DNA of 49,567 bases, taken from the sequence record MT176427.1. One strand, given 5' to 3'. The stretch's first letter is position 1. Every line of letters starts with the position of its first letter. Origin of the DNA: Escherichia phage CJ19. This document shows, one piece after another, positions 1,877 through 49,308 of this stretch. Below the pieces are notes generated by a model. It ran no database searches and was not told where the DNA came from. It worked only from the letters and a program-made list of their open reading frames with translations. The position numbers and the translations under genes are program-made.

Positions 1877-2286
1877 AGCATATCAGCAACTGCTTTCTTG
1901 TATTCCTCCTGACCGTATGCCACCGCCGCGAACCCGCCACGCTCACGCACGCGCCGGAGGAAATCTTTCTGCTCCTTACTGACTGGTGATGCCTTGCCTT
2001 TCCCGCTCTTATTGACGCGCTTCAATTCTATGGCCCCGAACGGATATTTACCGAACGGGCCTAGAAGGAATACAAAANCACTAACCCCTTTCAATAACCC
2101 GCTCTGAGCATCCTTTAGCGCCGTGTGGATGTGCTTCTTGTTCTCATTAACGGCGTGCCAGAACAGCAAATCAACATGCCTAACCTTAGTCCAAGTCACG
2201 CAGTCTACCTGGTGCTTGCTTTCCGTCCATGTGTCAGATTTGTCTGGAGTGTAATATTCCAGGTAGTCGCCTTTGTCTGTGATCAT
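1858..2286 (-). CDS. VRR-NUC / PD-(D/E)XK-like nuclease (putative)
   Basis: 142-aa ORF with a candidate (D)-x(n)-ELK nuclease motif (GAIELKRV); sits directly upstream of and overlapping the helicase gene; one codon contains an N at 2078. Confidence 0.4.
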   Translation of the reverse strand: MITDKGDYLEYYTPDKSDTWTESKHQVDCVTWTKVRHVDLLFWHAVNENKKHIHTALKDAQSGLLKGVSXFVFLLGPFGKYPFGAIELKRVNKSGKGKASPVSKEQKDFLRRVRERGGFAAVAYGQEEYKKAVADMLNSTNC

Positions 2287-4385
2287 AAGTTACCGTCCAA
2301 TCCAAAATCCTTACGTGAGATAATATCCTCACCCTTTGCATTCTTGCGGTGAGTTACCCGCACCGGATGCGCTATGTGGTGAGCATTGTTTAAAATCATT
2401 TTCGCACTTCTGTAAGCTGCCATTAATTTTGCGATCTTACTGTCATGAACGTGAGGTAATACCCCTTTCTGCTTCCATATCGTGTGGCATACCTGTGCCG
2501 TTGACTGAGGGAAGAACTTCTCATACGCGATGAAGTTAACTCCAACTGAGTCTGTCAGGTCGTACCGATAAAGAATGCCAGTATGATTACGTGTCAGCGT
2601 GACTTCGAAACTGTTAACTGTGCACCAGTCGTTTTTGGTGTAAGCCTTACCAGTCAGGTTATCATTGGGATCTTTCAGGCTCACGTCACAGCAACGGCAT
2701 ATTCTCGCCACTACGTCATTTTCAGCGCCACATCCCTTAACAATCACCTCGCCAGTGCGATCATCAATCTGGTCTTCACATATGCGAGACTTCCAGAAAT
2801 ACTCGCAACGATTTCCGTTTTCATCTCTGTGAATGCAGCGGCGAGCGTAAAAACTGTTCTCAGTTCCGCACAGTTCACATTTTTTCGGCTCTTTCTTACC
2901 ATCAAAGCGGCGCTGGTACTGAGCCTCTTCAAGAATCGGATCAAAGTAAAGCTGACCCAGCTCGTCCATGCAACCCGCAAAATCCCATACCAGGTGATCT
3001 TCCTTCACCATTCCCATCTCTTTTTGCCACGGCTTAAGCAATCTCATACCTCGACCAAGCAACTGGATCAGCAGAGTAAGTGAACCGATTTTGCGAAGGA
3101 TTACCGAAAAATCCCAAAACGGAACGTTAACTCCAGTGGTTAGCGCCATAACCTGAAATATGTATTTTATCTCGCCACGGTTAGCCGCCTCAAGTATTGC
3201 TTGTCGCTTTTTGGTGTTAGTCTTTTCCGTAATGATCTCATAGGTGGAGCCATGTGGAAGATAGCTCGCTGCCTCCTTGCAGTGTCGCTGACCTGCGCAC
3301 GTAATCAGTACGCCATTTCGCTTTTTCGCTTCCTCTACGACCATCCCCATGATTCGCTTTGTCATGCTGGCGTTGTCATGGATTTTATTTTCCATCGCCT
3401 TCATTTCTTTCTGGCTAAAATCCGCAGTTCCGTCCTGGCTTGATGCCTTGAACTCACCAAGATCATAGCCAGCGTCACCAACACTTCCGAATATTGTTGG
3501 AACAACTGAACCGAACTCAATAAGGTAATTAGTGTCGATGTTAGTAACCTGCTCACGCCAGAACCCAGGTAACTTAGGGTTATCGACAACAATCGGAGTT
3601 GTGCCTCTGAACTCAGAACCAGTCATGCCGAAGATGCGTAATTCTTTCCCGTTCTTCTCTTTGCAGCGGCGCATCAATTCAGTGATAATGATCGTGTACT
3701 GGCTTCGCTTGGTGCCGAGAACAGGCTTGCCAGTCTTCCGTCTGATTAGCAATTGCTTATCCATCACCTGAACGCCAACTTCTACGCCGTCAAGGTATCC
3801 ATTGACATAACCTTCGCTGTTTTTCGGGTAGTCAACGAATACACGCTCACCTTTTTCAGTGAGCATCATTTCAATCGTCTCTTCGTTGTCGATGGCGGCG
3901 GCAAGGTCTTCCCAATCCACCTGGTGACATTCATCAATACCCAGCACCATAGGTGTAAAATCACCAAGCGCCTTAAACAGACCGTTTGCAACCGTTCCTT
4001 CCGAACCGACAACGATTGGGAAGTAAGCTGATTTTGTGTTCAAGCCAGCACAGTAAACTGAGTTAGGAACGCCAAAGTTTGAGATCTCCTCACTATCCTG
4101 AGCGACAATATCGCCCTGACGCGCCAGTATCATCATCGACAAGCCCATTTCTTTNACGCGCGATGCGATCATGGCAAAGCCGATCGTCTTACCTGCCGAC
4201 ACTGACGCCTTAACGATGAATGGATGCTTATAGCGAGCAATGCGCTTGCCGATCTCGTCATACATTACGCACTGATACTCATAAGGAACCATGTCGCCAA
4301 ATGTGAATTTATCCTGAATCTCTTTAATCCTCTGCGGCCCGAGGTCTTCTATCTGTTTTTTAATGGATTTAATGCGCATAGCCAT
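2283..4385 (-). CDS. SF2 DNA helicase with C-terminal Cys-rich zinc-finger region
   Basis: Walker A (SAGKTIGFA), DExH box (GIDECHQ), C-terminal CxxC clusters; promoter cassette 4423-4467 upstream; N at 4155. Confidence 0.8.
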   Translation of the reverse strand: MAMRIKSIKKQIEDLGPQRIKEIQDKFTFGDMVPYEYQCVMYDEIGKRIARYKHPFIVKASVSAGKTIGFAMIASRXKEMGLSMMILARQGDIVAQDSEEISNFGVPNSVYCAGLNTKSAYFPIVVGSEGTVANGLFKALGDFTPMVLGIDECHQVDWEDLAAAIDNEETIEMMLTEKGERVFVDYPKNSEGYVNGYLDGVEVGVQVMDKQLLIRRKTGKPVLGTKRSQYTIIITELMRRCKEKNGKELRIFGMTGSEFRGTTPIVVDNPKLPGFWREQVTNIDTNYLIEFGSVVPTIFGSVGDAGYDLGEFKASSQDGTADFSQKEMKAMENKIHDNASMTKRIMGMVVEEAKKRNGVLITCAGQRHCKEAASYLPHGSTYEIITEKTNTKKRQAILEAANRGEIKYIFQVMALTTGVNVPFWDFSVILRKIGSLTLLIQLLGRGMRLLKPWQKEMGMVKEDHLVWDFAGCMDELGQLYFDPILEEAQYQRRFDGKKEPKKCELCGTENSFYARRCIHRDENGNRCEYFWKSRICEDQIDDRTGEVIVKGCGAENDVVARICRCCDVSLKDPNDNLTGKAYTKNDWCTVNSFEVTLTRNHTGILYRYDLTDSVGVNFIAYEKFFPQSTAQVCHTIWKQKGVLPHVHDSKIAKLMAAYRSAKMILNNAHHIAHPVRVTHRKNAKGEDIISRKDFGLDGNL

Positions 4386-5008: not shown

Positions 5009-5932
5009 ATGCACTACGATAAGAGAGAGGTTTTACCAAGAATGCGCGGCCTATGGGATAAGGCGCTTATCAATATATGTGGCGCAGATCCTAAGTTTTT
5101 CCAGACCAAAAAACACCAGCCATGCATTTATTGCGGAGGAAGCGATCGCGCGAGATGGACCAACAAAGTTAGCGAAGATGGTGATGGTGGAATTATCTGC
5201 AACCAATGCGGTTCAGGAGATGGTATTATTTGGGTCCAGAAGCTGCGAGGTGAGTCATTTAGTGAATGTATCGATGTTCTCGGTGAGTGGTTAAACCTTA
5301 TCCCTGTAGAAGTGGTTAATAAGGCAAATAAGCAAGCATCAAGGACTCAGCATTACAAAATGGGCGCTCAAGTAGATCATGAAAAAGTTCTTGAAGTCAT
5401 GGAGCGGACTGTAAGAGTTGAATCAAGCCAACTCACAACATATGAGGGTATTTATCTTGATGATGGATTCGATGTTGGTATAGCTAAGGATGGATCAATG
5501 ATTCATGCCGTACCTTGCTCGATGGTTTACGAGGATGGGATTGGTAATGAGTTCTGCAACTTAATGTTTATTGATGGAGATTCAAATGTTAAATTCCTTG
5601 CTGGTGATTACACTCGTGATTCTGTTGCTGTCATTGGTTCTTGGCAGGTTGATGGTTACACTTATGTTGTTGATAATTTTATTGATGGCGTACGTGTTCA
5701 TATTGCTACTGGGGGGCGTGAGGTGTTTGTTGCTTTCTCCTGTTATAACATGGAAATGGTTATTCACCGAGACAAGTCCCGCAGCTTCAGGATTGCTTGT
5801 CGTGATCATGATTTTGATATACTCTCTATTGCTGATGACAGGTCTGTTGGTGTAGTCATCCCAAATGATGGCAAGTCATTTAAAACAGGCATTAGAAAGA
5901 AAGTTTACAAAGCAAACGACTTGCTAAAATAA
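5009..5932 (+). CDS. DNA primase (zinc-binding N-terminus, Toprim-like core)
   Basis: N-terminal CxxC...CxxC (CIYCGG...CNQCG) zinc-binding element followed by acidic D-rich core; location next to helicase; followed by terminator 5933-5955. Confidence 0.55.
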   Translation: MHYDKREVLPRMRGLWDKALINICGADPKFFQTKKHQPCIYCGGSDRARWTNKVSEDGDGGIICNQCGSGDGIIWVQKLRGESFSECIDVLGEWLNLIPVEVVNKANKQASRTQHYKMGAQVDHEKVLEVMERTVRVESSQLTTYEGIYLDDGFDVGIAKDGSMIHAVPCSMVYEDGIGNEFCNLMFIDGDSNVKFLAGDYTRDSVAVIGSWQVDGYTYVVDNFIDGVRVHIATGGREVFVAFSCYNMEMVIHRDKSRSFRIACRDHDFDILSIADDRSVGVVIPNDGKSFKTGIRKKVYKANDLLK

Positions 5933-7948: not shown

Positions 7949-7977
7949 AATAAAAGCCCCGAAAGGGGCTTTATCTT
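7949..7977. terminator. bidirectional terminator between tail fibre and ssb
   Basis: Hairpin AAAGCCCC-GAAA-GGGGCTTT flanked by A-run and T-run; convergent genes. Confidence 0.6.
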
Positions 7978-8438
7978 TAGAATGGAATGTCGTCGTCGAA
8001 TTGCATTGACTGATTTGGTTGCTGCTGCTGGCGTTGTTGATGCTGTTGCTGAGGCTGATGTTGCTGCTGCCGTTGTTGACCTTGATTCTGCTGCTGCGCT
8101 GGTTCTCGCTGGCTGAATTGCAGTTGAGGTCGGATCATTTCAGCGGTGACGTAAACAGTCCCGTCATTACCCTGTCTAGACGATAAGTGAAGAGTGTCAG
8201 CAGAAATTGAAACAACCTTGCCCTCCTGGAACGCTTCATCATACCACTGCATAACATTTTCTTTTGCGAAGAATGTAGCTCTGTAGTTGCTGTAAACCGT
8301 CTCATCCTCGCCATTATGATTTCGAATCTTCATTCGTTCAGAAAGTTCTACGGCATACATTTTCCATCGCCCGTTATTGTTGCTACCTTCTTTTGTGAAT
8401 GGTTCTTTACGGATCTGACCAGTGATTACGTGTGGCAT
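7977..8438 (-). CDS. ssb: single-stranded DNA-binding protein
   Basis: C-terminus is Q-rich linker followed by the canonical acidic SSB tip DDDIPF. Confidence 0.7.
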   Translation of the reverse strand: MPHVITGQIRKEPFTKEGSNNNGRWKMYAVELSERMKIRNHNGEDETVYSNYRATFFAKENVMQWYDEAFQEGKVVSISADTLHLSSRQGNDGTVYVTAEMIRPQLQFSQREPAQQQNQGQQRQQQHQPQQQHQQRQQQQPNQSMQFDDDIPF

Positions 8439-8476: not shown

Positions 8477-9133
8477 TTAGAATTGTTCGATGGATTCAGA
8501 TTGTACAGGCTCGGAAGGTGCATTGGCAATCTTATCATCAACCTTTTGCGTATCTGCCTTTTTCGCTGGCTGGAAACCGCGAGCGCTACCGATGCTCAAT
8601 TCAGCCTTGCGCTTCTGCAAGTGGTCTTCTGCAATCTTCCATTCCGCCGCGCCGAGTGAACCTTTCGCGCTCTTATAGATCACCTGGAGGTCTTCAAGTT
8701 TTTCGCAGTTGGTGATCAGTTTTTTGTAGTCCGCTGCCGTGCGCTTTGCAATTTCTGCATCGTCATCGCTCTGAGTGATTCCAAGCGCTGCGCACAATGC
8801 GTAACGGCGACCGTATGAAGTTGTTGAGCCGTAAGCCTGGGCGCTAATCTTCTCGATCGGCATATTGTACTGAAAAGCAAGCCACTCGCCGGAACTGTGA
8901 AGGATGAGCGTCTCAATGTGCATTACCTTTTCGGTTGACGTATCCAGATTTGACTGGATAACCATAAGGTCATGCTCTTTTAGTGCTGGCTCTACGGCCT
9001 CCAAAACGTCCGTCAGGTTTGAGTAATTGTTTTTCAGGTGACCGTTAAAGCCTGATTTTCTTGCTATGGCAAACTGCTTTTTAGCTGCAATTAGAGCGGC
9101 TGAAACATTCGAAAACTTATCTGATGTACGCAT
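8477..9133 (-). CDS. Erf-like single-strand annealing protein (putative)
   Basis: 218-aa ORF between ssb and exonuclease; N-terminal region resembles Erf-family pattern; own promoter cassette 9171-9213 with consensus TGCTATAAT. Confidence 0.5.
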   Translation of the reverse strand: MRTSDKFSNVSAALIAAKKQFAIARKSGFNGHLKNNYSNLTDVLEAVEPALKEHDLMVIQSNLDTSTEKVMHIETLILHSSGEWLAFQYNMPIEKISAQAYGSTTSYGRRYALCAALGITQSDDDAEIAKRTAADYKKLITNCEKLEDLQVIYKSAKGSLGAAEWKIAEDHLQKRKAELSIGSARGFQPAKKADTQKVDDKIANAPSEPVQSESIEQF

Positions 9134-9170: not shown

Positions 9171-9213
9171 ATTATAGCAAATCACCGCGTTCGTGTTTAG
9201 CAAAAAGTGCTAC
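9171..9213 (-). promoter_or_regulatory. early promoter cassette (ATAGCAC box + TGCTATAAT)
   Basis: Box 9196-9213; hairpin CGGTGAT/ATCACCG; consensus extended -10. Confidence 0.5.
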
Positions 9214-10250
9214 GCTTCCAGGATGTGCTTGAACTGTTTCATTACCCAATCAGGTGTATCCAGTTCGACTTCCGGCTCGCCGTTGTTGTATGAAGGCCAC
9301 ACGTCATTGGCTTCGCACATTGAAAAGGTGTGAATCACGCTCATGTACTGCGCTCGACCAATCTTAAGCTGATCGCTACTCATCCGGTACGCCATCGGCA
9401 AGTAAGGCTCCTTCTTCTCCTGGGCCAGCAATCGCACAACCACAGGTCGCGTTTCCTCAAAGCACTTGACGAACAGGTCACGCTGCAATGCCATCTTGAG
9501 GTAATATCCAAGGTTGAACGCCATGCGCGGGAACTCAGTCGGGTTTGCGCTCATTGTCGTTTTGTAATCAGTGATGACGACAATTTCAGGATGAATCTCA
9601 GGATCGTAACCCATGCGCCGGATGGATTCTGGATCATTAATGATGTCAACATGGTCAAGCCGAACCTTGACTTTAACGCCACAAATTACGCCGAACAACG
9701 AATACTCACGGAATGCCGTCTCGCTATTCATACAGGCGTTATGCTCAGGAATCATTTCAAGAACCTGGCGCATACTTACGCAAGCGTCGTAGTCTTCCGC
9801 CTTAACCAGCTCAACGCCATCGGCCCACGCCTGACACTGTGCGATCATATCAATCAGCCACATGACGTTGAGGTCTTCGCCGCAATCAACCATCATCTTG
9901 ATCAGTTCTGGATATTGCTTACCGCTTGTACCAGTCAGGCCAAATGATTTTAATTTCGTTGCCAATGCTGCCTGGCTAGTGATCACGTTTTCAATCTCGC
10001 TTTCTTTCGGTGCGCGGCGATACTGGCGCTCAAACAGTGCCTTACTCTCGAAATTGGTATGCGACTGCGTACCGAAGACCAGTGCCTTAGTCGTCGAGTT
10101 CATTTCAAACTTCCACGCCGCAGGGCAAGTACTGTGAATCTTGCTGAGTGACGAGCCTGATACATAATCGGCGGTCCACTCATCTTTGCTGTGGTAAAAG
10201 TCGTTACTCATTTCTTCTGACGTGAAGTATTGAAACAGTGGCTTGGTCAT
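9210..10250 (-). CDS. recombination exonuclease (RecE/YqaJ-like, PD-(D/E)XK)
   Basis: 346-aa ORF upstream of annealase gene, acidic nuclease-like core (VVITDYKTT); canonical sigma70-like promoter 10284-10312 upstream. Confidence 0.45.
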   Translation of the reverse strand: MTKPLFQYFTSEEMSNDFYHSKDEWTADYVSGSSLSKIHSTCPAAWKFEMNSTTKALVFGTQSHTNFESKALFERQYRRAPKESEIENVITSQAALATKLKSFGLTGTSGKQYPELIKMMVDCGEDLNVMWLIDMIAQCQAWADGVELVKAEDYDACVSMRQVLEMIPEHNACMNSETAFREYSLFGVICGVKVKVRLDHVDIINDPESIRRMGYDPEIHPEIVVITDYKTTMSANPTEFPRMAFNLGYYLKMALQRDLFVKCFEETRPVVVRLLAQEKKEPYLPMAYRMSSDQLKIGRAQYMSVIHTFSMCEANDVWPSYNNGEPEVELDTPDWVMKQFKHILEA

Positions 10251-34731: not shown

Positions 34732-34776
34732 ACTATAACAAAACCCGCCGGAGCGGGTTTAGCAATTAGTGCTATT
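34732..34776 (-). promoter_or_regulatory. early promoter cassette (ATAGCAC box + TGTTATAGT)
   Basis: Box 34757-34776; hairpin AACCCGC/GCGGGTT in spacer; 22-bp spacer. Confidence 0.5.
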
Positions 34777-35408
34777 TACCAGGGTAATCCATCTTCCCAC
34801 TCGTAAACATCAACCTCTGTAACTGGTGAGCTAATACCGCAAGCCTCAGCCACTGCCATTACACCGCCTTCAATATCACCATTGACCAGATGCACATCAT
34901 GCTCGTTATATTTCTTGTAATCAGGAAAATGCGATTCCTTGATGCGAATGTAATCACGGCTATCGCCAGCGAAAGTCTTGCCATCCATGAACAGGCGGAC
35001 CAGGGTAACATCGTGACCATCTTCAACGAGTCGGATCACTTCGTCGGGGAAGCCGCCATCAGTGCAAACAAAGCAGAAGCCTTCATCACACAGCTGGATA
35101 TGTTCGCTCATCAATTTGCCGAACTGCTGATTGCCAAAAAGCGGCTTGACCACTGTTTCGCTAATCCAGATCATGAACTCACGGCAGGTCTTGCCACCGA
35201 GAAATTTCTGAGGCTGCTCTTTCTGATCGCGGTAGTCGTATGCGGTGATGAACTTTGAGAAAGCTCTGGCACCAAGGATGGATGCCGCAATCTCAAACAT
35301 CGGACGCTTGAAGCTGGTAGGGATGCAGTTGTAATCCGCTGCGAGCGCGTTGCCGATCGTGTCTTTACCAACCGAAGCTGGACCGTTGAGAATGATAATC
35401 TTTGACAT
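34776..35408 (-). CDS. P-loop nucleotide/polynucleotide kinase-like protein
   Basis: N-terminal P-loop GPASVGKDT resembling NMP-kinase Walker A; 210 aa. Confidence 0.5.
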   Translation of the reverse strand: MSKIIILNGPASVGKDTIGNALAADYNCIPTSFKRPMFEIAASILGARAFSKFITAYDYRDQKEQPQKFLGGKTCREFMIWISETVVKPLFGNQQFGKLMSEHIQLCDEGFCFVCTDGGFPDEVIRLVEDGHDVTLVRLFMDGKTFAGDSRDYIRIKESHFPDYKKYNEHDVHLVNGDIEGGVMAVAEACGISSPVTEVDVYEWEDGLPW

Positions 35409-39778: not shown

Positions 39779-39824
39779 ATCATAGCTGACTACCCGATTT
39801 GTTGTTTAGCAATTCGTGCTATTC
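39779..39824 (-). promoter_or_regulatory. early promoter cassette (ATAGCAC box + TATGAT)
   Basis: Box 39805-39824; 22-bp spacer; drives decayed P4 and P3-P2 operon. Confidence 0.45.
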
Positions 39825-40373
39825 ACCGTTCAGGAGAGTTTTCGCTTTCCGGTAGAACTGGATGGCCTTCTCCACCTCATCGGCATCATAGCCATGGATG
39901 GTTGGCGGCTTAATCGGCTCAACGTAGTGAGAGCGTGGCGCATCAGATCGGTACTGACTGCACCAGCTGTACACGTCTCGCTCATGCATTCCCGCCAGGG
40001 CTGGATGCACAAATATCTTGTCGCCAATCCGGCAGATGATTCCGGCGTCCTGGAGTGACGGCAGGATGTTATTGCTCAGGTCATTGTATATGCCATCACG
40101 TCCGACGAATGGTATGACCTCTCTGATTTGTCTGTATAGCTGGCTCACACAAACCATTCCGGTATTGCCGCATAAGCGCTTAATCTTATGCACCACGACG
40201 CCGTATTTGTAACTCAGCTTGACGCACGACATCTCTTCGGAGCTTGACCAATATTTGAAGGTGTCGCGATAGCCATTTGCACTGATCGCAACCTTAAGCG
40301 GTGACATGCCGCTTTCACTGGCTTCATTGAATATCTGCTCGCCTGTCATTCTTTCGCTCCCGAAGTAACTCAT
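39819..40373 (-). CDS. hypothetical protein sharing N- and C-terminal modules with the 527-aa ATPase
   Basis: SPLKVAISANGYR and ICRIGDKIFVHPALAG match PPLRVAINANGYR and TCLIGDKIYINPRLLG of 44541-46124. Confidence 0.5.
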   Translation of the reverse strand: MSYFGSERMTGEQIFNEASESGMSPLKVAISANGYRDTFKYWSSSEEMSCVKLSYKYGVVVHKIKRLCGNTGMVCVSQLYRQIREVIPFVGRDGIYNDLSNNILPSLQDAGIICRIGDKIFVHPALAGMHERDVYSWCSQYRSDAPRSHYVEPIKPPTIHGYDADEVEKAIQFYRKAKTLLNGE

Positions 40374-41031: not shown

Positions 41032-41280
41032 GTAACCACTATGTACAGCTTGTACATCAAATTTCGCGGAGGATTGCCCCATATATGCCTTTTTATTCCT
41101 ACAATGTCATCCCATTCTTACAAGTGTCAGAATATATCATAGAAAGCTATCGCAATATCCAATACCTCTTATCTACATTATCTACATATATATATAATAA
41201 TAATAATAATATAGATAAAAGGTTGTTATATAAGGATATTTTATTGTAACCATAGCGTAACTAGGCGTTATAGGCGTACC
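41032..41280. repeat. AT-rich control-region element, copy B
   Basis: Contains ATAGCTCAATGTAA (41032-41045), (AT)5(AAT)5 at 41186-41210, TAAAAGGTTGTTATA...GATATTTTATTGTAAC and GCGTAA/GGCGTT/GGCGTA repeats. Confidence 0.7.
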
Positions 41281-41527
41281 TGATTCCACGCCGGATGGAT
41301 TTGTCTACAGAGTATAACATGCATAACGCGTATGCGGTGGAAACGTGTGGCGGAAAAATCCTACCAGGCGATCATGGGATCAGATCTCACCCCATCATTC
41401 CCCCCACCAATGAATCATCGCTCAATTCGCAACAATCAAAAACATCATTGCATCGGAAGCAATATTGCTGTATGTGCAATAGTCATGATAATCATTGCAA
41501 TATCTGCAACAATCCATAAATCCAACG

Positions 41528-41574
41528 AATAGCACTTTTTGCTAATGACCGATCAGGTGTGATTCGCTATTATT
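41528..41574 (+). promoter_or_regulatory. promoter cassette (ATAGCAC box + TATTAT)
   Basis: Box 41528-41546; -10 at 41569-41574; leader CCATCGAAACGAG. Confidence 0.5.
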
Positions 41575-41612
41575 ACTCCATCGAAACGAGTGAAGAGAAC
41601 TGGAGAAAATAA

Positions 41613-41816
41613 ATGAGCACTGTAAAAATGTATTGCTACATCGTGATGTCTGAGCCGTGTGATCCGAATTACGATACGACAGTTCACTGCGTATGCCTCA
41701 GTGAACAGATGGCTAAGCAGGTTTGCGAGAAGATGAACATGCGCGATGGTTTCAACAACTATGAATACTACGAAGCGGAGTTGCAGAAATGGAGTTACGC
41801 CAAGAATGTGCACTGA
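41613..41816 (+). CDS. hypothetical Cys-containing small protein (67 aa)
   Basis: Promoter cassette 41528-41574 and leader CCATCGAAACGAG upstream. Confidence 0.4.
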   Translation: MSTVKMYCYIVMSEPCDPNYDTTVHCVCLSEQMAKQVCEKMNMRDGFNNYEYYEAELQKWSYAKNVH

Positions 41817-42015
41817 TTGGCAGCGGTAACGAGTATCTAATCCGTTGCGACAACTAAAGTCCTGAAGTGTTCCGCCTGGTGGGTGAGATGCCAGTACAGG
41901 CAACCGCTATGAATGCTAAGACTATTGAGTGGGCGCTACTTTACGGTGGTGTGGCACGGGTAATCGGCCAGGCCAAAATCACTGTTGATATTTCACTAAT
42001 TTAAGGAATTGACAA

Positions 42016-42447
42016 ATGAGCATTGTTCACGGTGTTATCTATAAGGGAAAAACTGACGGAAAGGTAAGGTTTGTTACGCCATCCGGCAGGGTTTATATGT
42101 GGGCCTACGGAGCCTGGCGCTTCCAGCACCAATTCAATGAGTCGATCTACAATAGCTTGCGATCCTGTATCGGGAATGGCGTTAGCAATATATACCTGGC
42201 ATCAAGTCGCAAGGTGTTCATGGAAAAGCGTGTAGCGCTCGATCCGATTGACTACTTTGCCGTTGAGTTCATGGGGCATCGGTTTAGTAAAAGACGATTG
42301 TTCCGCAAAGGTGAGATTGCAATGGAACAACAAAATGCGGCTGCTGCTTTCGGCAAAGCGGCACGTCAACGCCTGACTGGTTATCATCCATGCTTTCCGC
42401 CAACGCCGTTTTATGCTCACTGTAAACGACCACCAAAAAATCGTTAA
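42016..42447 (+). CDS. hypothetical protein (143 aa)
   Basis: ORF with RBS; no motif recognised. Confidence 0.4.
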   Translation: MSIVHGVIYKGKTDGKVRFVTPSGRVYMWAYGAWRFQHQFNESIYNSLRSCIGNGVSNIYLASSRKVFMEKRVALDPIDYFAVEFMGHRFSKRRLFRKGEIAMEQQNAAAAFGKAARQRLTGYHPCFPPTPFYAHCKRPPKNR

Positions 42448-42491
42448 ATAGCACGAATTGCTAAACTAAGCCTCACGGATTGAGGCATAAT
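42447..42491 (+). promoter_or_regulatory. promoter cassette (ATAGCAC box + CATAAT)
   Basis: Box 42447-42465; hairpin GCCTCA/TGAGGC; leader TCATCGAAACGAAG. Confidence 0.5.
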
Positions 42492-42529
42492 CATTTCATC
42501 GAAACGAAGTACACAAAGAGGAAGTAAAA

Positions 42530-42754
42530 ATGTCAGTTAAAGCTCAGAACGTAGTAGCACACATCGAAGCAAAAGGCCGTGCGATCGTCAAGCTGGACCG
42601 CGCCGCAGGCGTAAGCCAAATCACCATCACGCGCCGTGAGTTCGACCGCTACGTTGTTGGCACACATCCAGGCTCAATCATCCGTAGCCTTACCCGTACT
42701 GAGATGATCAACCTGTTAAATGATAACTCACTTTACATCAATTCCTGGAGCTAA
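42530..42754 (+). CDS. hypothetical protein (74 aa)
   Basis: Promoter cassette 42447-42491 and leader TCATCGAAACGAAG upstream. Confidence 0.4.
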   Translation: MSVKAQNVVAHIEAKGRAIVKLDRAAGVSQITITRREFDRYVVGTHPGSIIRSLTRTEMINLLNDNSLYINSWS

Positions 42755-42756
42755 CA

Positions 42757-42972
42757 GTGCATCAAGATAATTTCTGGAGCCGCCACCGCGCGGCACTTGA
42801 AGCCGGACTCAATGAAGAGTGGGCGCTCAAGGTTGCTTACGGATGCATCGAACTCGATGACGTATTGGGCGTTATGGATATGGATCTGGAAAGCGAAAGC
42901 AACCAGTCAGTAGACGGAATCGGGGATGACTTCGACTACCGCTTAAAATTTGATGACGGAATCCCGTTCTAA
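42757..42972 (+). CDS. small acidic protein ending in SSB-like tail DDGIPF
   Basis: 71-aa ORF, acidic C-terminal third, last residues KFDDGIPF versus phage SSB QFDDDIPF; too short for an OB fold. Confidence 0.45.
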   Translation: MHQDNFWSRHRAALEAGLNEEWALKVAYGCIELDDVLGVMDMDLESESNQSVDGIGDDFDYRLKFDDGIPF

Positions 42973-42981
42973 GGTGAGATC

Positions 42982-43221
42982 ATGAAGGTAAAGTGCACTA
43001 ACGTAATCGCCAGCACAGACAAGAAGGTTTTGACACCATTCGTAAAAGGCTCTGTATACGACGCTGAGCCGCTAATCATTAACGGTAAGACAATCCCGAA
43101 CGAATGGGTTATTAATGGCGCTGAGCGACCGCACAAGCACGATTCTGGCTGGATTGCTATCGCAGGCTGGAAGGTCGGAATGTTTATCCTTGGTATCGCA
43201 ACGTTTGATGAGGTGAAATAA
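42982..43221 (+). CDS. hypothetical protein (79 aa)
   Basis: ORF with RBS AGGTGAGATC; hydrophobic C-terminal segment. Confidence 0.35.
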   Translation: MKVKCTNVIASTDKKVLTPFVKGSVYDAEPLIINGKTIPNEWVINGAERPHKHDSGWIAIAGWKVGMFILGIATFDEVK

Positions 43222-43379
43222 TGCTCAAGCCATCCGATTTGAACTACTACGACAACGACACGATCGCGAAGCTCTCAGGTCAAGGATGGTATCCATGGAG
43301 CACCATCGCTCAGGTTGAAGACTTGCAAAGCAGTTACGAAATCACACAGAAAGCAATTGAGAAGGCTAAGAAGAAATGA
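43221..43379 (+). CDS. small hypothetical protein (52 aa)
   Basis: Manually translated ORF (MLKPSDLNYYDNDTIAKLSGQGWYPW...) with TAATG and ATGA overlaps to neighbours; below ORF-track cutoff. Confidence 0.3.
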   Translation: MLKPSDLNYYDNDTIAKLSGQGWYPWSTIAQVEDLQSSYEITQKAIEKAKKK

Positions 43380-44044
43380 AAAAGGTAATTTACTGCTTGT
43401 TCGACGGTTCTGGTATCGCTGGCCTCCCATGGGCGGAAGATGGTCACACCGTCTACTGCTTCAATGCGGACTCCGGCAATCATGGCGAATACCATATCAA
43501 GATGAAGCATGAGAACATCCACTACGTCAACATGTGGATTGACAAGGATTTCATCACTAAGTGTGAATTGCTCGGCCTGCCTCCGGCGCAAATGGTTATC
43601 GGCTTTCCTGATTGCACGCTGTTCTCTCAGTCTGGATCACAGCATGAGCGCGGGGAAGATGAGCTGGCATACGCCCTGGCTAACGCGAAGCTCGTCGAAG
43701 AAGTCGGCAATCACTTCCAGGCACCATGGATGGTTGAGAATCCGGTAGGCAAGCTGTCAAGCCTGTGGCGTAAGCCTGACTTCTATTTCAATCCTTGCGA
43801 TTATGGCGGTTACGTTGATCACGATGATGTTTATCACCCAAGAATGCCCCCTCGTAATGCTTACAATAAAAAGACTTGCATTTGGTGTGGCAATGGATTT
43901 GTTGAACCTATTAAAAAGCCAGTTGAGAGCATTGGATTCTTCTGGGCCTGGAAATACTGCGGCGGAAAGTCTGCAAAGACAAAGGTACTCCGCTCATTAA
44001 CACCGGAAGGCTTTGCTCGCGCACTATATGAAAGCAACAAATAG
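43376..44044 (+). CDS. DNA methyltransferase-like protein (C5-cytosine-type motif order)
   Basis: Motif I-like FDGSG, motif IV-like GFPDC with Cys, motif VI-like ENPVG in the right order and spacing; short (222 aa). Confidence 0.4.
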   Translation: MKKVIYCLFDGSGIAGLPWAEDGHTVYCFNADSGNHGEYHIKMKHENIHYVNMWIDKDFITKCELLGLPPAQMVIGFPDCTLFSQSGSQHERGEDELAYALANAKLVEEVGNHFQAPWMVENPVGKLSSLWRKPDFYFNPCDYGGYVDHDDVYHPRMPPRNAYNKKTCIWCGNGFVEPIKKPVESIGFFWAWKYCGGKSAKTKVLRSLTPEGFARALYESNK

Positions 44045-44084
44045 CACTAATTGCTAAAGCCCTTCGGGGCTTTTCCTGTATATT
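44040..44084 (+). promoter_or_regulatory. promoter cassette (ATAGCAC box + TGTATATT)
   Basis: Box 44040-44058; hairpin AGCCC/GGGCT; leader TCATCGAAACGAAACAC. Confidence 0.5.
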
Positions 44085-44120
44085 CATCTCATCGAAACGA
44101 AACACGCAAAGGAAATCAAA

Positions 44121-44471
44121 ATGACAGCAACAACTAAAAACTTCATTAGCAACGAAAACGTATTATACAAAGCTCGTGTTAAAGACGGTGTAGAGCAAAT
44201 CAAGAAAGATGGTAAATGGGTTAACCTGGAAGAACGCGGTAAGTACATCAAGACAAAAACTCTTTACTGCACGAAGGTTAATCACAGGTCAGCAGTTAAA
44301 AAAGACTTCAAAGAAGGTAAGCGCTATCAGGTAAATATTCATGCTGGCCTTGGCCAATCTGCCGGTTACATTTACGATGAGGATGGTAATGCTTGGCAGC
44401 TTTACCGAAACGAAGAGGTTGGCTTCATGAGCCTCTGCGGTACGTACAAGTGGCAGGCGGCGTACAAATAA
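44121..44471 (+). CDS. hypothetical Lys-rich protein (116 aa)
   Basis: Promoter cassette 44040-44084 and leader TCATCGAAACGAAACACGCAAAGGAAA upstream. Confidence 0.4.
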   Translation: MTATTKNFISNENVLYKARVKDGVEQIKKDGKWVNLEERGKYIKTKTLYCTKVNHRSAVKKDFKEGKRYQVNIHAGLGQSAGYIYDEDGNAWQLYRNEEVGFMSLCGTYKWQAAYK

Positions 44472-44540
44472 GTAGCATTTTCTGGCAAGCGGATTTACCA
44501 TAGGTGCGTTAACATTAGCGCACCACTAAGGAGTTTTTTA

Positions 44541-46124
44541 ATGTTTGATTTCAACGAAGATAAATTGTCAATCGATCAGGTCATGGCTGTAGCCGCTGCC
44601 GATAACCTGCCACCTTTGCGCGTTGCCATCAATGCGAACGGATACAGGCAGAGCCAATCATTCTGGAAAGCCCCAACAGAAATTGACTCAGGCGGTGACA
44701 AATATCCGGTTATCTCACTTGGTAACGATTATGATGTCGTTGGTAAGCTGTCAAGCAATGCCGCTCGTTCAGTTCAATTCCCCGAGTCGTCCGCTTACAT
44801 GCATTTCCTCGGATGCATATCAGCCGCCATGCTGGGCCGATTTACGGTTGAGTATCACGGAACACAACAGCCGACCGCTCTTTACGTCGTAACCAGTCAG
44901 CCACCATCGACAGGTAAATCAGCCATCAACTCACTTTCGCTGGCCCCGATGATCGCAGAGACTGAGCGACTCAACGAGATCCGAAAGCGCGACCGCAAGA
45001 AGATTATGGCTAAACTATCTGCTCTATCCAAGGAGATGAAGCAGGAAAAATCACCGTCCGACATGGCGGCACTGTTTGAGGAAAAAGAAGAACTGGAAGA
45101 AAAACTGGAACGCCTTTGTGACATCGTATTCCCCGTATCCGACACCACGCCGGAAGGTCTGGCGCGAATCAACAACCGCCAGGGTAACTTCTCTGTGATC
45201 TCGGATGAAGCGACGAGCGTAAACTCACTGTTAGGCATGACCTATGGTGATGGCTCAAAGAAAACGAACAGCGAACTTGTGCTTAAGGCATGGGATGCTG
45301 GTAACGTATCTATCGCCCGTGCGAACGCAGACAACAACATGAGCTTTATTGCGATGGGCTGCATATCTGTAATTGCGCAGGATGAAACAATCAACGCGAT
45401 CATGAATGCTGGCGCGCGTGGTATCGGTGTATCCGAGCGATTCTTGCTTGTGCGTGAGAAGTCATTCCTTGGCGAGCGTGTATTCGTTGACGAAAAAGGC
45501 GAATCAACATACGAGCCGATTGATGGCGGACTCAAGGCGGACTACTTCCGTCTGGTCCATGAGATCATGAGCGAACACGAAGTCAACCTGACAGTGAGCA
45601 CGTCGGCGATGAAATATCTCAACCGTGCGCGTCAGGATATGGAACCTCACCTTGCGGACGGCGGGAAGTATTCACACACAATGCTTCGCGGCGCGCTGGG
45701 TAAGTTCGATAAGCAGGCTATCAGGATCGCGGCTGTTCTTCACACTGTGCGTAACTGGTTTAATCCCAATGGCGGGAGTCCGAAGAAGTCCAGAGAGATT
45801 GAGCTTGACACAATGCAGGAAGCGGTAATTATGTTCCAGGAGCTGAGTAAGACTTATCTGTCATCTGCAAACGCTGCTGGTCATGCTGGCGACCATGCTG
45901 AGATGAATAAGCTGATCGATATTCTGATCAAGCAAGGTAAGAACGGGAAAGGCGTTGTAGGTGTCAGATCCCTATATGAAGCGGCTCGTAAGGTTAAGCC
46001 ATTCGAGGGCCAGGCTGGCGTAATGACTCGAATCAAAGACCATCTGATCCCTATGCTTGATGAGAAAAACTATACGTGCCTGATTGGTGATAAAATTTAC
46101 ATTAATCCGCGACTGCTGGGGTAA
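44541..46124 (+). CDS. P-loop NTPase (putative replication/recombination ATPase)
   Basis: 527-aa ORF with P-loop-like SQPPSTGKSA; N- and C-terminal modules shared with 39819-40373. Confidence 0.5.
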   Translation: MFDFNEDKLSIDQVMAVAAADNLPPLRVAINANGYRQSQSFWKAPTEIDSGGDKYPVISLGNDYDVVGKLSSNAARSVQFPESSAYMHFLGCISAAMLGRFTVEYHGTQQPTALYVVTSQPPSTGKSAINSLSLAPMIAETERLNEIRKRDRKKIMAKLSALSKEMKQEKSPSDMAALFEEKEELEEKLERLCDIVFPVSDTTPEGLARINNRQGNFSVISDEATSVNSLLGMTYGDGSKKTNSELVLKAWDAGNVSIARANADNNMSFIAMGCISVIAQDETINAIMNAGARGIGVSERFLLVREKSFLGERVFVDEKGESTYEPIDGGLKADYFRLVHEIMSEHEVNLTVSTSAMKYLNRARQDMEPHLADGGKYSHTMLRGALGKFDKQAIRIAAVLHTVRNWFNPNGGSPKKSREIELDTMQEAVIMFQELSKTYLSSANAAGHAGDHAEMNKLIDILIKQGKNGKGVVGVRSLYEAARKVKPFEGQAGVMTRIKDHLIPMLDEKNYTCLIGDKIYINPRLLG

Positions 46125-46127
46125 ATT

Positions 46128-46502
46128 ATGTTTCTTCTGGATCTGTACCGTTTTTGCGAAGGCTATGAAAAATTCAACCGTCAGCACATGGCGGTATTCA
46201 TATACAAGCATAGGGAGTGCGAGCGACTGGCGAAGGCTGCCGGAGTTACGCCTCGCTACTTCGCATCATCAGCATCAAAGGAGTTCATCGCAAGATGCAT
46301 GGGCGAAGGATACCTTGACGGCGTGAACAACTGGTACTGGTCCAAAGGGGCGCAAAAAAGGCCATTTGAATTTCATTTCAGGTGCTATTGCGGCGAGAAC
46401 GATCGCTATACATGGGAGATGATGAACATAGAGAAGATGAGCGATGAAGAGTTATTCGGAAAGCCAGGTCGTAATCGACGCGATAATCAGATGCAGTTCT
46501 GA
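46128..46502 (+). CDS. hypothetical Cys/Trp-rich protein (124 aa)
   Basis: ORF 4 bp after ATPase stop. Confidence 0.35.
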   Translation: MFLLDLYRFCEGYEKFNRQHMAVFIYKHRECERLAKAAGVTPRYFASSASKEFIARCMGEGYLDGVNNWYWSKGAQKRPFEFHFRCYCGENDRYTWEMMNIEKMSDEELFGKPGRNRRDNQMQF

Positions 46503-46640
46503 GAATGGCATTAGTGAGGACGGGATTAACCAAGCCCTTATCTCAATGCTTAACTCATCCATGCGCGCCGGACGACGTGATGAGCATACGTTGTGCAATA
46601 ATGAAGGTGAATTGTTGCTACTGGTGCAAAGATTTGGATA

Positions 46641-46676
46641 AAAAAAGGGAGCCTTTCGGCTCCTTTTATTTTTTGC
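46641..46676. terminator. bidirectional terminator between rightward early genes and lysis cassette
   Basis: Hairpin GGAGCC-TTTC-GGCTCC flanked by A7 and T-rich run. Confidence 0.6.
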
Positions 46677-47079
46677 GTCGTTCCAGCCAAATTGAAAGAG
46701 CAATCATCAGGATGCCAATGAACAGGAATACCAGTCCGGCAATCAGATTACCTTTCGAGTCATCGTTCCTGATCTCAATCTTATCAGCGATGATGGTGTC
46801 AGCCTTGATGCTTGAGGTGCTGACAGACTTCCCGTTTGACGTATCAACCTTTCCTACCTTTGAATCTTTGATAGTAGTGTCGTTGTCGTTTGACTTATCC
46901 ACCTTTCCGGTAACGCCTACCGTTTGCTTCACGTTCTCAGCCCCAGCCTGCGCACTGATTTCTGGCTTGCTGCCAATTAAACCAGTCAGCGCAGATGTTG
47001 CCGAACAACCTGATAACACGAACAAGGCCCACACTACGAAGCCGATAACCAAAGCACGCTGTAAATTTAGACAACTCAT
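46666..47079 (-). CDS. unimolecular spanin (u-spanin)
   Basis: N-terminal lipoprotein signal (LSGC) plus C-terminal transmembrane helix ([17 protein letters not shown]); last gene of lysis cassette. Confidence 0.6.
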
Positions 47080-47573
47080 TTCTGTAGCTCCTTAACACAA
47101 TATTGATACTCGAACGCCCGTCGATTCTTAAGCCCCTTTGACCGTTCTTTCTTTCCAGTCTTCGGATTCTTAAAGTAAGTCCAGGCCCATAGCTGATTGC
47201 AAGCCTCAAGTAGTTTACCCTGGTTAGTAAGTCTCAGCATAGTGGAATTACGGTAAGCACCAGTGCCAACGTTGAAAGTGAAGCTGTACATTGCCGCACG
47301 GAAGTTATCCGGAACGTCAACCTTAATCCGCTTATCAACCTCACGCTTGGCGATGTCGATATGCTTATATAGCAATGCGTCGCATTCTCTTTTGGTGTAG
47401 GTCTTGCCGAGAATAACGTCAGGTCCAGTGATGCCAGCGCACACTGTCCAAACTCCGGCAATATCCTTATATGGCTTGTACTCAACGCCTTCAATCTTCT
47501 CAACAAGTGAAGGCGTTAGCGATAAAGCTACACCAAAAGAAATACTAGCAAGCGTCCTGTTTACGCTCATCAT
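47076..47573 (-). CDS. endolysin, lysozyme-like with N-terminal SAR (signal-anchor-release) domain
   Basis: Glu-x8-Asp-x5-Thr-like lysozyme catalytic region ([23 protein letters not shown]) after weakly hydrophobic N-terminus. Confidence 0.7.
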
Positions 47574-48120: not shown

Positions 48121-48166
48121 GAATATAGCGCCTTCCGGAGCTATAGTGTTAGGCAATTCGTGCTAT
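48121..48166 (-). promoter_or_regulatory. promoter cassette (ATAGCAC box variant + TATATT)
   Basis: Box 48148-48166 (TTGCCTAA variant); precedes small ORF 47921-48094. Confidence 0.4.
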
Positions 48167-49308
48167 CAGATGTCGCTCATTTCAGGACGGTAAACAAAGC
48201 GACCGACTTCGCCGAACTCCTTGGAGTAGACAATTACCGCCGCCTGGCGATATGAGCGCCAACCGCCGCGCGCTGCATAGGCATCTTTCGCGCCAAGCTG
48301 ACCGTGAATCTCATCAATACCCAGCGTGCCTTCTGTGATCGTCTGGTGATGCCAGTGTCCTGAGTGAGTGTAGATATATTTGCTCGTACCGAACTCTTCG
48401 CGGAAGTCAGTCGCCATTGCCGCCAGTCGAGTATCAGCTTTCTTCATGGTGTGACCATGAGTGTATCCAAGCAATGTTTTGCCCCACTTTGTACGGTGAA
48501 GAATCATAGGAGACGTATCAACCGTTACGCGCGCCTCATCTTCAAAGTATGCCGCCATTGCAGCGCGGAGCCAAATCATACCCGCCTGATCATGGTTCCC
48601 TTCAATGATCTGGATTTCGACCTCTTCGTGCTTATCCAGCATTAGCGCCACCGCGCGGCGTACGGAACGGATTGCAACGTGAACTATCTTGGCGTATCGA
48701 CTATCCTGATCCAGTACGTGACCGCTTGCAGGCGTTACTGCGTCCAGGCCATCAGAGTGAAGGAAGTCACCGCCGATTAACAGGACTGCTTTCTTAGCCT
48801 TCGGTGATACGCCGACAGAATAATCAAAGAAGTTTTTCAGCACTTTCTCTGAGATGTCGGTGCTGTAGTTCTCACCGCATTCATGCTTGTGGGCCATCGC
48901 GCCAATATGAAGATCGAATACCGGATAGAGCGCCAGGAGATTTTCATCGTAGTGAGGTTCGCCAAGGATAGGCTGAGCCGCCGCGCGTGGTAGTTCATCA
49001 CAGAATGCTTCAATTGCAGCATCCATCATGGCGGCTAACTTTTCCTTGTCCTGATCGGTCTTAACCCAGCGCACAACCTCAGAACCGTCAGCGCGAATCA
49101 TAGTTGATGTACCTTTAACCTGAAAACCCTCTGGTACGTGTACTCTTACGTGTTTATTTCCGTGGAACTCACCGCGCTTTGCCAGGCGGCTTGAGCGCTG
49201 CTCAACAGTTCTAATGTTCATCCCGTATTCCTGGGCGATTTGGCGCAGCGTTTTACCAGCTTCGCGTTCAGCAATGAATTGTTCGTCAGTGATTTTTTGA
49301 ATAGCCAT
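48166..49308 (-). CDS. metallophosphoesterase (calcineurin-like) with N-terminal HTH
   Basis: N-terminal HTH-like TLRQIAQEYGMNIRTV; phosphoesterase motifs FDLHIG, GDFLHSD, GNHD, GHTM, GHWHH. Confidence 0.6.
   Translation of the reverse strand: MAIQKITDEQFIAEREAGKTLRQIAQEYGMNIRTVEQRSSRLAKRGEFHGNKHVRVHVPEGFQVKGTSTMIRADGSEVVRWVKTDQDKEKLAAMMDAAIEAFCDELPRAAAQPILGEPHYDENLLALYPVFDLHIGAMAHKHECGENYSTDISEKVLKNFFDYSVGVSPKAKKAVLLIGGDFLHSDGLDAVTPASGHVLDQDSRYAKIVHVAIRSVRRAVALMLDKHEEVEIQIIEGNHDQAGMIWLRAAMAAYFEDEARVTVDTSPMILHRTKWGKTLLGYTHGHTMKKADTRLAAMATDFREEFGTSKYIYTHSGHWHHQTITEGTLGIDEIHGQLGAKDAYAARGGWRSYRQAAVIVYSKEFGEVGRFVYRPEMSDI

Follow-up and report, generated by a model that had tools for sequence, protein, structure and literature searches.

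What use could a T1-like phage have for a protein of 71 residues that ends like an SSB and is too short to be one? The question arises at positions 42757-42972 of the sequence of Escherichia phage CJ19 (MT176427.1; 49,567 nucleotides), which was analyzed over its whole length and is referred to here as the window. The window is a near-complete T1-like siphophage genome with ESCO41, TH30 and ETEP102 as best DNA matches; ESCO41 belongs to Nouzillyvirus (Drexlerviridae), and the window is Nouzillyvirus-like. An earlier note, made from the letters of the sequence, had pointed to a small acidic protein with an SSB-type C-terminal tip at this place, and the translation confirmed that such an ORF is real. 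The coding sequence (42757..42972, plus strand; ORF list and profile match) starts with GTG, reads MHQDNFWSRHRAALEAGLNEEWALKVAYGCIELDDVLGVMDMDLESESNQSVDGIGDDFDYRLKFDDGIPF and belongs to the T1 orf6 family (phrog_9085 / phrog_9323); its homologues use an ATG start. A GGAG ribosome-binding site read from the sequence (42747..42750, plus strand) lies 6 nt 5' of the GTG. Since the TAA of the upstream ORF (42752-42754) is situated between GGAG and GTG, the gene looks translationally coupled. With 17 acidic versus 5 basic residues, a pI of 4.05 and a mass of 8.1 kDa the product is indeed a small acidic protein; the last 32 residues contain 10 acidic versus 2 basic ones.

The similarity to SSB concerns the very end of the chain. 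The stop codon (42970-42972) directly adjoins the codon of Phe71, which places the tip at the extreme C-terminus with a free carboxylate. The C-terminal peptide is DYRLKFDDGIPF, its counterpart in T1 orf6 NEDVDDYIPW. The SSB-type tip KFDDGIPF, assigned from its likeness to E. coli SSB and from conservation, comprises residues 64-71 (42946..42969, plus strand); its distal residues D66, D67, G68, I69, P70 and F71 show the acidic stretch followed by Ile-Pro-Phe. In comparison to DFDDDIPF of E. coli SSB, six of the eight positions are identical, namely the IPF, two Asp and the equivalent of Phe172. Enterobacterial SSB tips are almost invariant, and the phage SSB tips considered here are near-invariant with FDDDIPF or FNEDIPF. 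The window encodes an SSB of its own with 153 aa (7977..8438, minus strand, from the minus-strand translation; phrog_44, E 2.7e-27) that ends with QFDDDIPF. This tail and its coordinates had been given correctly in the earlier note, but not the strand, as the plus frame is full of stops. The T1 orthologue, annotated as SSB, ends with FDDDIPF, the SSB of phage JulesPiccard with FNEDIPF.

For the octapeptide of E. coli SSB it was reported that IPF is indispensable and that the Asp residues and Phe172 add affinity; the distal DIPF segment is resolved in SSB-Ct co-crystal structures, while the proximal DFDD adds affinity, for example with ExoI and RecO (PMC10143822). Dissociation constants of SSB-Ct range from 98 nM for ExoI to 10.6 uM for Red-beta, whose binding is abolished by F177A. 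RecQ and Pol III bind the tip at micromolar affinity, and Red-beta stands for phage annealing proteins that bind it as well (PMC6393309). Enterobacterial SSB tips have to serve at least 17 partners (PMC10018359, PMC7145534).

The 71-aa protein is not an SSB, because the N-terminal ssDNA-binding core of about 110 residues, the OB fold, is missing. Two AF2 runs, based on 23 and 41 sequences, agree in three short helices at residues 6-15, 20-27 and 33-37/39 with pLDDT values of ~70-76, followed by coil without regular structure from residue ~40 to 71; with a mean pLDDT of 59-63 the model is of moderate confidence, and the linker reaches only ~45-60. No OB fold and no strands occur in the AF2 model. 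Searches with the protein returned no match in Pfam or NCBIfam, no PDB sequence-profile match and no match to a PHROG SSB. The earlier view that the chain is too short for an OB fold is thus borne out. Beta-clamp-binding motifs are penta- or hexapeptides of the QL[SD]LF or Gln-x-x-Leu-x-Phe type, and this pattern is absent from the C-terminal residues YRLKFDDGIPF.

AF2 model and conserved columns together delimit an N-terminal domain (residues 1-45; 42757..42891, plus strand). It is followed by an acidic linker (residues 46-63, SESNQSVDGIGDDFDYRL; 42892..42945, plus strand) that is predicted by AF2 to be flexible or disordered and is unalignable between clades. The protein is therefore modular, its phage-specific helical domain being joined through a variable linker to an SSB-type tip. 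Conservation within the family is highest over the N-terminal 45 residues. Their core motif is AGLNxEWAxKVAxGxxxLxxALGxMDMDxES, and G17, L18, V26, L33, A36, L37, G38, M40, D41 and E45 form invariant or near-invariant columns. This domain, with its LGDMDMDxES motif, may be the real business end of the protein. A Foldseek search of the AF2 model against PDB gave nothing better than E 4.5, and against BFVD only uncharacterised phage family members were found, including longer proteins of ViI-like phages. The fold of the N-domain therefore offers no functional lead.

The family was delimited by profile and translated searches. The protein matches phrog_9085 over residues 1-71 (E 6.8e-35) and phrog_9323 over residues 1-48 (E 6.5e-22). 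Homologues were found by tblastn in 95 GenBank phage records; T1 and ESCO41 list theirs as hypothetical proteins. The relatives fall into 51 clusters at 90% identity, and 38 representatives at the 50% level came from a profile search of 1.8 billion proteins. No relative was detected in 185,579 bacterial and archaeal GTDB species genomes with the patterns used, and a scan of IMG/VR returned only 3 loci. Within the reach of the GTDB scan and its patterns, only phages carry the family, and no sign of a prophage or bacterial origin emerged.

The small members of the family span Tunavirinae, Tempevirinae, Vilniusvirus and Kyungwonvirus, all groups of Drexlerviridae, in addition to metagenomes. A tip of the form [IFLMV]P[FW](W) is located at the end of 43 of the 49 small members, 41 of them exactly and two with one extra Trp; at least two of the six tipless ones look like truncated fragments. 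An Asp or Glu occupies position -4 in 32 of 41 tip-bearing sequences, and I69, P70 and F71 are invariant in alignment A1. The window clade ends with FDDGIPF, Tunavirus and Sertoctavirus including T1 orf6 with DDYIPW, Vilniusvirus and LF82 phages with NEIPF or DEIPF, Hanrivervirus and Tlsvirus with CPRCFPF or CKRCFPF, and Cronobacter phage CS01 with CECMPF. Metagenomic members carry IPF, IPW, LPF, VPF or IPFW, and NHLPF, EHVPF, MGIPF and AYIPF are further tips of the family. Between clades, the 20-30 residues that precede the tip defy alignment. In the window and T1 clades this stretch is an acidic coil, in the NBD2, Hanrivervirus and CS01 clades a four-cysteine CxC-x5-6-CxxC module, a probable zinc knuckle. 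The codons of the tip vary synonymously between lineages for Ile (ATC/ATT), Pro (CCG/CCC/CCA) and Phe (TTC/TTT). As the tip is kept beside an unalignable linker and with synonymous codon change, it is, judged from the sequences, under purifying selection as a peptide. The SSB-type tip proposed earlier is hence meaningful, with both the family-wide occurrence and the synonymous codons pointing to selection. Its conservation makes it very probable that it works as a mimic of the docking peptide with which bacterial SSB recruits enzymes of repair and replication. On the same kind of evidence, the features kept in the family correspond to the distal DIPF of SSB-Ct, whereas the proximal DFDD is not kept.

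PHROG and Pfam scans found no DNA polymerase gene in the window. The same scans assigned an SF2 helicase (2283-4385, minus strand), a T7-type primase (5009-5932), an Erf-like annealing protein (8477-9133, minus strand), a RecE-like exonuclease (9210-10250, minus strand) and an SbcD-like exonuclease (48166-49308, minus strand), besides a dNMP kinase, a polynucleotide kinase and two DNA methyltransferases. Because a DNA polymerase is lacking, yet Erf, a RecE-like exonuclease, primase and helicases are present, SSB-tip-dependent partners are relevant to this phage. The gene of the 71-aa protein is located in a presumed early rightward operon (41172..46667, plus strand), whose bounds are consensus matches only, namely promoter-like sites at 41172-41210 and a bidirectional terminator-like hairpin at 46644-46667. 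The gene order of the operon is conserved in T1 and in metagenomic relatives. Comparison of the window with T1 and four distant metagenomic contigs revealed only four recurrent genes. These are the tip-protein gene, the gene of a 116-aa T1 orf7-like protein (44121..44471, plus strand; blastp across loci, phrog_2684), that of a 527-aa DUF3987 protein (44541..46124, plus strand; PF13148 E 6.7e-39, phrog_2373 E 3.8e-255) and that of a 124-aa protein directly 3' of it (46128..46502, plus strand; blastp across loci, phrog_2794). The tip-protein gene is found upstream of the DUF3987 gene in the window, T1, NBD2, Hanrivervirus and the four metagenomic contigs, and a cytosine methyltransferase gene often adjoins it.

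The DUF3987 protein, whose gene is the anchor at the end of the operon, is a putative SF6/MCM-like replicative helicase. Its family was assigned to the SF6, MCM-like replicative helicases (PMC4889955), and 5'-3' helicase activity has been demonstrated for one member (PMC11724360). This neighborhood raises the possibility of a replisome adaptor, in which the N-domain would bind the DUF3987 helicase module while the tip would dock onto a host pocket such as that of Pol III chi, DnaG or PriA, coupling the phage helicase to the host polymerase. The recurrence of the tip protein among the four helicase-operon genes and the lack of a phage DNA polymerase gene would fit such a role, and the acidic C-tail of the T7 helicase might serve as a precedent (PMC8472574). 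The distribution of the genes speaks against it. Homologues of DUF3987 occur in 906 phage records, and the helicase of JulesPiccard (Bas03, Braunvirinae) shares 93% identity with that of the window; this phage also has its own tip-bearing SSB, but a six-frame HMM scan of its genome found no member of the tip-protein family, although the same HMM finds the window gene with E 5e-29. Upstream of the helicase gene, ACG-M12, Klebsiella phage Sweeny and C1 likewise have no family member. From these four phages it follows that the 71-aa protein is no obligatory coupling factor; JulesPiccard alone rules out an obligatory helicase cofactor and identifies the tip-protein gene as accessory. We consider the adaptor an unlikely explanation.

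The best explanation, to which we assign about even chances, is that the 71-aa protein is a selective SSB-tip mimic that would fill the tip pocket of a single genome-maintenance protein, from either host or phage. It would correspond to the C-terminal half of an SSB mounted on a small, phage-specific domain of three helices where an SSB has its OB core. Early in infection, the free Ile-Pro-Phe carboxyl end would plug the hydrophobic, basic-rimmed pocket of an SSB-interacting protein. For this single partner the phage protein would thereby become a competitor of host and phage SSB, and/or it would tether the partner to whatever the N-domain binds. Candidate partners are ExoI, RecQ, PriA, Pol III chi, or the Erf protein or exonuclease of the phage. 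We infer each of these binding steps as well as the identity of the target. A selective accessory modulator is suggested by the relaxed sequence before the tip, by the strong conservation of the N-domain and by the scattered occurrence of the family in T1-like phages. Unlike the near-invariant SSB tips, the relaxed tip of the small protein would be suited to one or few pockets. The occurrence of DDYIPW, CPRCFPF, CECMPF, NHLPF and EHVPF beside the constant FDDDIPF/FNEDIPF of the SSBs likewise suggests a narrow target. A more far-reaching version regards the SSB tip as a portable 'address label', with which an 8-kDa protein would selectively hijack or block one host SSB-interacting enzyme, e.g. 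ExoI, RecQ, PriA or Pol III chi; the EWEDGLPW tail of the dNMP kinase would be a related case. This version is possible, but we hold it only tentatively. As a counterpoint, tips of the T1 clade end with Trp and not with Phe, some tips contain few acidic residues, and the fit to the pocket is assumed.

The diversity of the tips can also be read in another way. The hydrophobic-Pro-aromatic end could be unrelated to SSB-tip pockets and address a phage-specific site or act as a stability or degradation signal, so that the likeness to DDDIPF would be convergent or incidental. Many tips, among them MGIPF, AYIPF, EHVPF and CPRCFPF, indeed show little of the acidity of SSB, the T1 clade uses Trp, and longer relatives of 160-310 aa (P0068, P0073, P0081, P0082, P0086 and P0087) hold the N-domain internally and have no tip. 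On the other hand, the C-terminal position, the hydrophobic-Pro-aromatic order and the acidic residue at -4 are just the features that define the distal DIPF (PMC10143822). Such ends are also rare. The window has 878 stop-to-stop frames with 30 aa or more, and only four of them end with [IFLMV]P[FW], namely the SSB, the 71-aa ORF, the dNMP kinase and one non-genic frame of 31 aa. In T1 only the SSB and the orf6 homologue end in this way, in JulesPiccard the SSB, the dNMP kinase and two non-genic frames. Apart from the SSB, each of these three genomes thus has no more than one or two genic frames with such an end. An unrelated motif is for these reasons distinctly improbable.

The earlier note had suggested an SSB-tail decoy that could titrate or recruit host SSB-interacting proteins. 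Its interpretation is supported in part, namely as regards the small acidic protein without an OB fold and the selected SSB-type tip. In the general form of the decoy, excess protein would titrate all SSB-tip pockets of the host, uncouple SSB from at least 17 partners and halt host replication and repair. This would be in accordance with the tip of the window clade, FDDGIPF, being the most SSB-like of the family, and with the position of the gene in a presumed early operon. SSB-Ct peptides and mimetics inhibit interactions of ExoI, DnaG and PriA in vitro (PMC10143822, PMC5872125). A general titration of host partners is, however, weakened in several respects. It would also hit the SSB of the phage itself, which carries the canonical tip. 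Most family members lack the proximal DFDD or have Tyr, Gly, Cys or a zinc-knuckle-like CxxC in its place. The conservation of the N-domain is left unexplained, since a passive carrier would not need it. A monovalent peptide would moreover be a poor competitor against tetravalent SSB unless the N-domain oligomerises. The phage SSB tip, the relaxed DFDD and the conserved N-domain make the blanket decoy less likely than the selective mimic, and we regard it as quite improbable.

In E. coli SSB the tail contacts its own OB fold, an interaction that is auto-inhibitory and condensate-forming. The acidic linker and tip of the 71-aa protein resemble the C-terminal region of SSB and could therefore attach to the OB core of the SSB of either host or phage, modulating ssDNA binding or dissolving condensates. 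Condensation of SSB and the contribution of its linker and tip to partner binding are subjects of present research (PMC12143593). The zinc-knuckle variants with their few acidic residues fit poorly to a DNA-mimic or OB-binding role, and we rate this reading as very unlikely. A chance likeness in a non-functional or mis-called ORF, for which nothing but the small size and the GTG start could be brought forward, is refuted by the ribosome-binding site, the ATG-started homologues, the full-length PHROG match, the relatives in 51 clusters and 38 representatives and the selection on the tip, and its probability is close to nil.

The selective mimic can be set beside several known systems. One is T1 orf6 (AAP49993.1), a true homologue with 53% identity over the full length and the same architecture, encoded in the same slot between orf5-like and orf7-like genes; it differs in ending with DVDDYIPW instead of FDDGIPF. 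With SSB-Ct, which reads MDFDDDIPF in E. coli, the protein shares F-D-D-x-I-P-F-COOH at the extreme C-terminus behind an acidic, predicted-flexible segment. It differs by a helical N-domain of 45 residues in place of an OB fold, without any SSB match, and by a family that keeps only the distal [DE]-x-[hydrophobic]-P-[F/W] and tolerates Trp or a Cys knuckle. Small, very acidic early phage proteins that disable host DNA enzymes are known in Ugi, Ocr and Gam, which are folded DNA mimics. The 71-aa protein resembles them in size, acidity, early position and proposed molecular mimicry, whereas its mimicry would reside in a short linear motif at the end of a predicted disordered tail.

The T7 gp2.5 SSB carries a terminal Phe on an acidic tail. 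In T7, the acidic C-tails of the helicase contact basic patches on the polymerase, and removal of the tails lowers processivity; gp4 and gp2.5 may thus be taken as a precedent for an SSB-like acidic tail on a non-SSB replication protein and for a shared docking surface (PMC8472574). There, the helicase itself bears the tail, which binds electrostatically to the phage's own polymerase. Here, it is located on a separate 8-kDa protein of a phage without polymerase, and the motif is the host-type IPF tip. Free SSB tips without a DNA-binding core compete at the tip pockets of ExoI, RecO, DnaG and PriA (PMC10143822; PMC5872125). Synthetic SSB-Ct peptides and peptidomimetics share this lack of a core with the 71-aa protein but are laboratory-made, whereas the phage protein is natural, encoded and equipped with an additional conserved domain. 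By analogy, it would functionally most resemble a natural SSB-Ct competitor peptide or a trans-acting form of the T7-style tail-sharing.

In the literature covered, which leaves out most subscription journals, neither the T1 orf6 family nor any non-SSB protein of a phage with an SSB tip was found to be described; the only natural carriers of SSB tips found there were SSBs themselves. In the 71-aa protein, a docking motif that is known as such stands on a new carrier other than an SSB. Bacterial genome maintenance has the SSB tip as its hub peptide, which is also a drug target. If the selective mimic is correct, the 71-aa protein would be the first natural tip-only competitor or adaptor without a DNA-binding core, and it would reveal which SSB-partner contact a virulent phage must block or borrow. 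If the more tentative address-label version holds, it would, as a natural, trans-acting SSB-tip mimic, represent a new class of phage host-takeover or anti-defence factors and provide a ready-made genetic probe for such contacts during infection. The family would further offer a scaffold for selective encoded inhibitors, with the IPF, IPW, FPF and zinc-knuckle-IPF variants as a structure-activity series. One anonymous early gene of the T1 family, classic yet poorly understood phages, would thereby obtain a function.

Two relationships between the tips of the small proteins and those of the phage SSBs were considered. Covariation of both tips is rejected on account of T1, where FDDDIPF of the SSB stands against DDYIPW of orf6. 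For a recent copying of the tip from the SSB gene the support is not clear, as the last 27 nt are alike at 20 of 27 positions, which shared codons alone predict. As a side observation, the dNMP kinase of the window genome ends with the tail VYEWEDGLPW, and a related tail of the EWEDGLPW type is also carried by the dNMP kinase of JulesPiccard (Braunvirinae).

Many members of the tip-protein family, the small phage proteins that end in an SSB-like C-terminal tip, carry a four-cysteine module, CxC-x5-6-CxxC, instead of the acidic linker. The module directly precedes the IPF, FPF or MPF tip, and the second x of the CxxC half is nearly always acidic. Such members are encoded by phages NBD2 (locus L002, 1501-1734), haarsle (L033, 2486-2710) and CS01 (L014, 389-643), with further examples among the homologues P0039-P0077. 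In all probability these cysteines form a zinc knuckle on which the C-terminal tip is displayed.

The N-terminal core of the tip protein (GLNxEW...ALGDMDMDxES) was also found within uncharacterised proteins of 140-310 aa from ViI-like and other myophages, which are without the IPF tip. These longer proteins comprise the homologues P0068, P0073, P0081, P0082, P0086 and P0087 as well as the BFVD matches E1XTJ6 (Salmonella phage ViI) and G8GDS7 (PhiSH19). For P0081 a precomputed Pfam label, Phage_Mu_gp6, exists that was not recovered by a local Pfam scan.

The tip-protein gene is followed, after two small genes, by that of a DNA methyltransferase (43376-44044, plus strand). This enzyme matches phrog_757 and has homologues with a cytosine-methylase annotation. 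The two genes are likewise neighbours in NBD2, LF82-19, the Hanriverviruses and one metagenomic contig; in T1 the tip-protein homologue is present without this neighbour. A possible role of this neighbourhood is anti-restriction.

The genome encodes a second non-SSB protein with an acidic, hydrophobic-Pro-aromatic C-terminus, the 210-aa dNMP kinase (34776-35408, minus strand; phrog_139). It ends in ...VDVYEWEDGLPW, and its C-terminal tail occupies the last ~20 codons (34779-34838, minus strand). The dNMP kinase of JulesPiccard (Braunvirinae) retains this ~20-residue tail and likewise ends in ...VDVYEWEDGLPW; the dNMP kinases of T1, 011D2, K50_evo1 and damhaus lack it. The tail might tether nucleotide supply to an SSB-tip pocket or to the fork.

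The coordinates that the earlier note gives for the SSB, 7977-8438, hold, but the gene lies on the minus strand; the plus-strand frame contains many stop codons. The 196-aa plus-strand ORF at 46505-47095 is probably not a gene: it reads across a bidirectional terminator-like hairpin (46644-46667), overlaps minus-strand ORFs that adjoin the endolysin gene (47076-47573) and has no match among the PHROG profiles.

A 184-aa ORF at 39819-40373 (minus strand; phrog_7327) also matches positions 447-514 of phrog_2373, which belong to the C-terminal part of this DUF3987 helicase profile. Reciprocally, residues 439-526 of the DUF3987 helicase of the tip protein's early operon match phrog_7327. The ORF, which lies ~4 kb upstream of the helicase gene and on the opposite strand, appears to be a paralogue of the helicase's C-terminal domain that exists as a separate protein.
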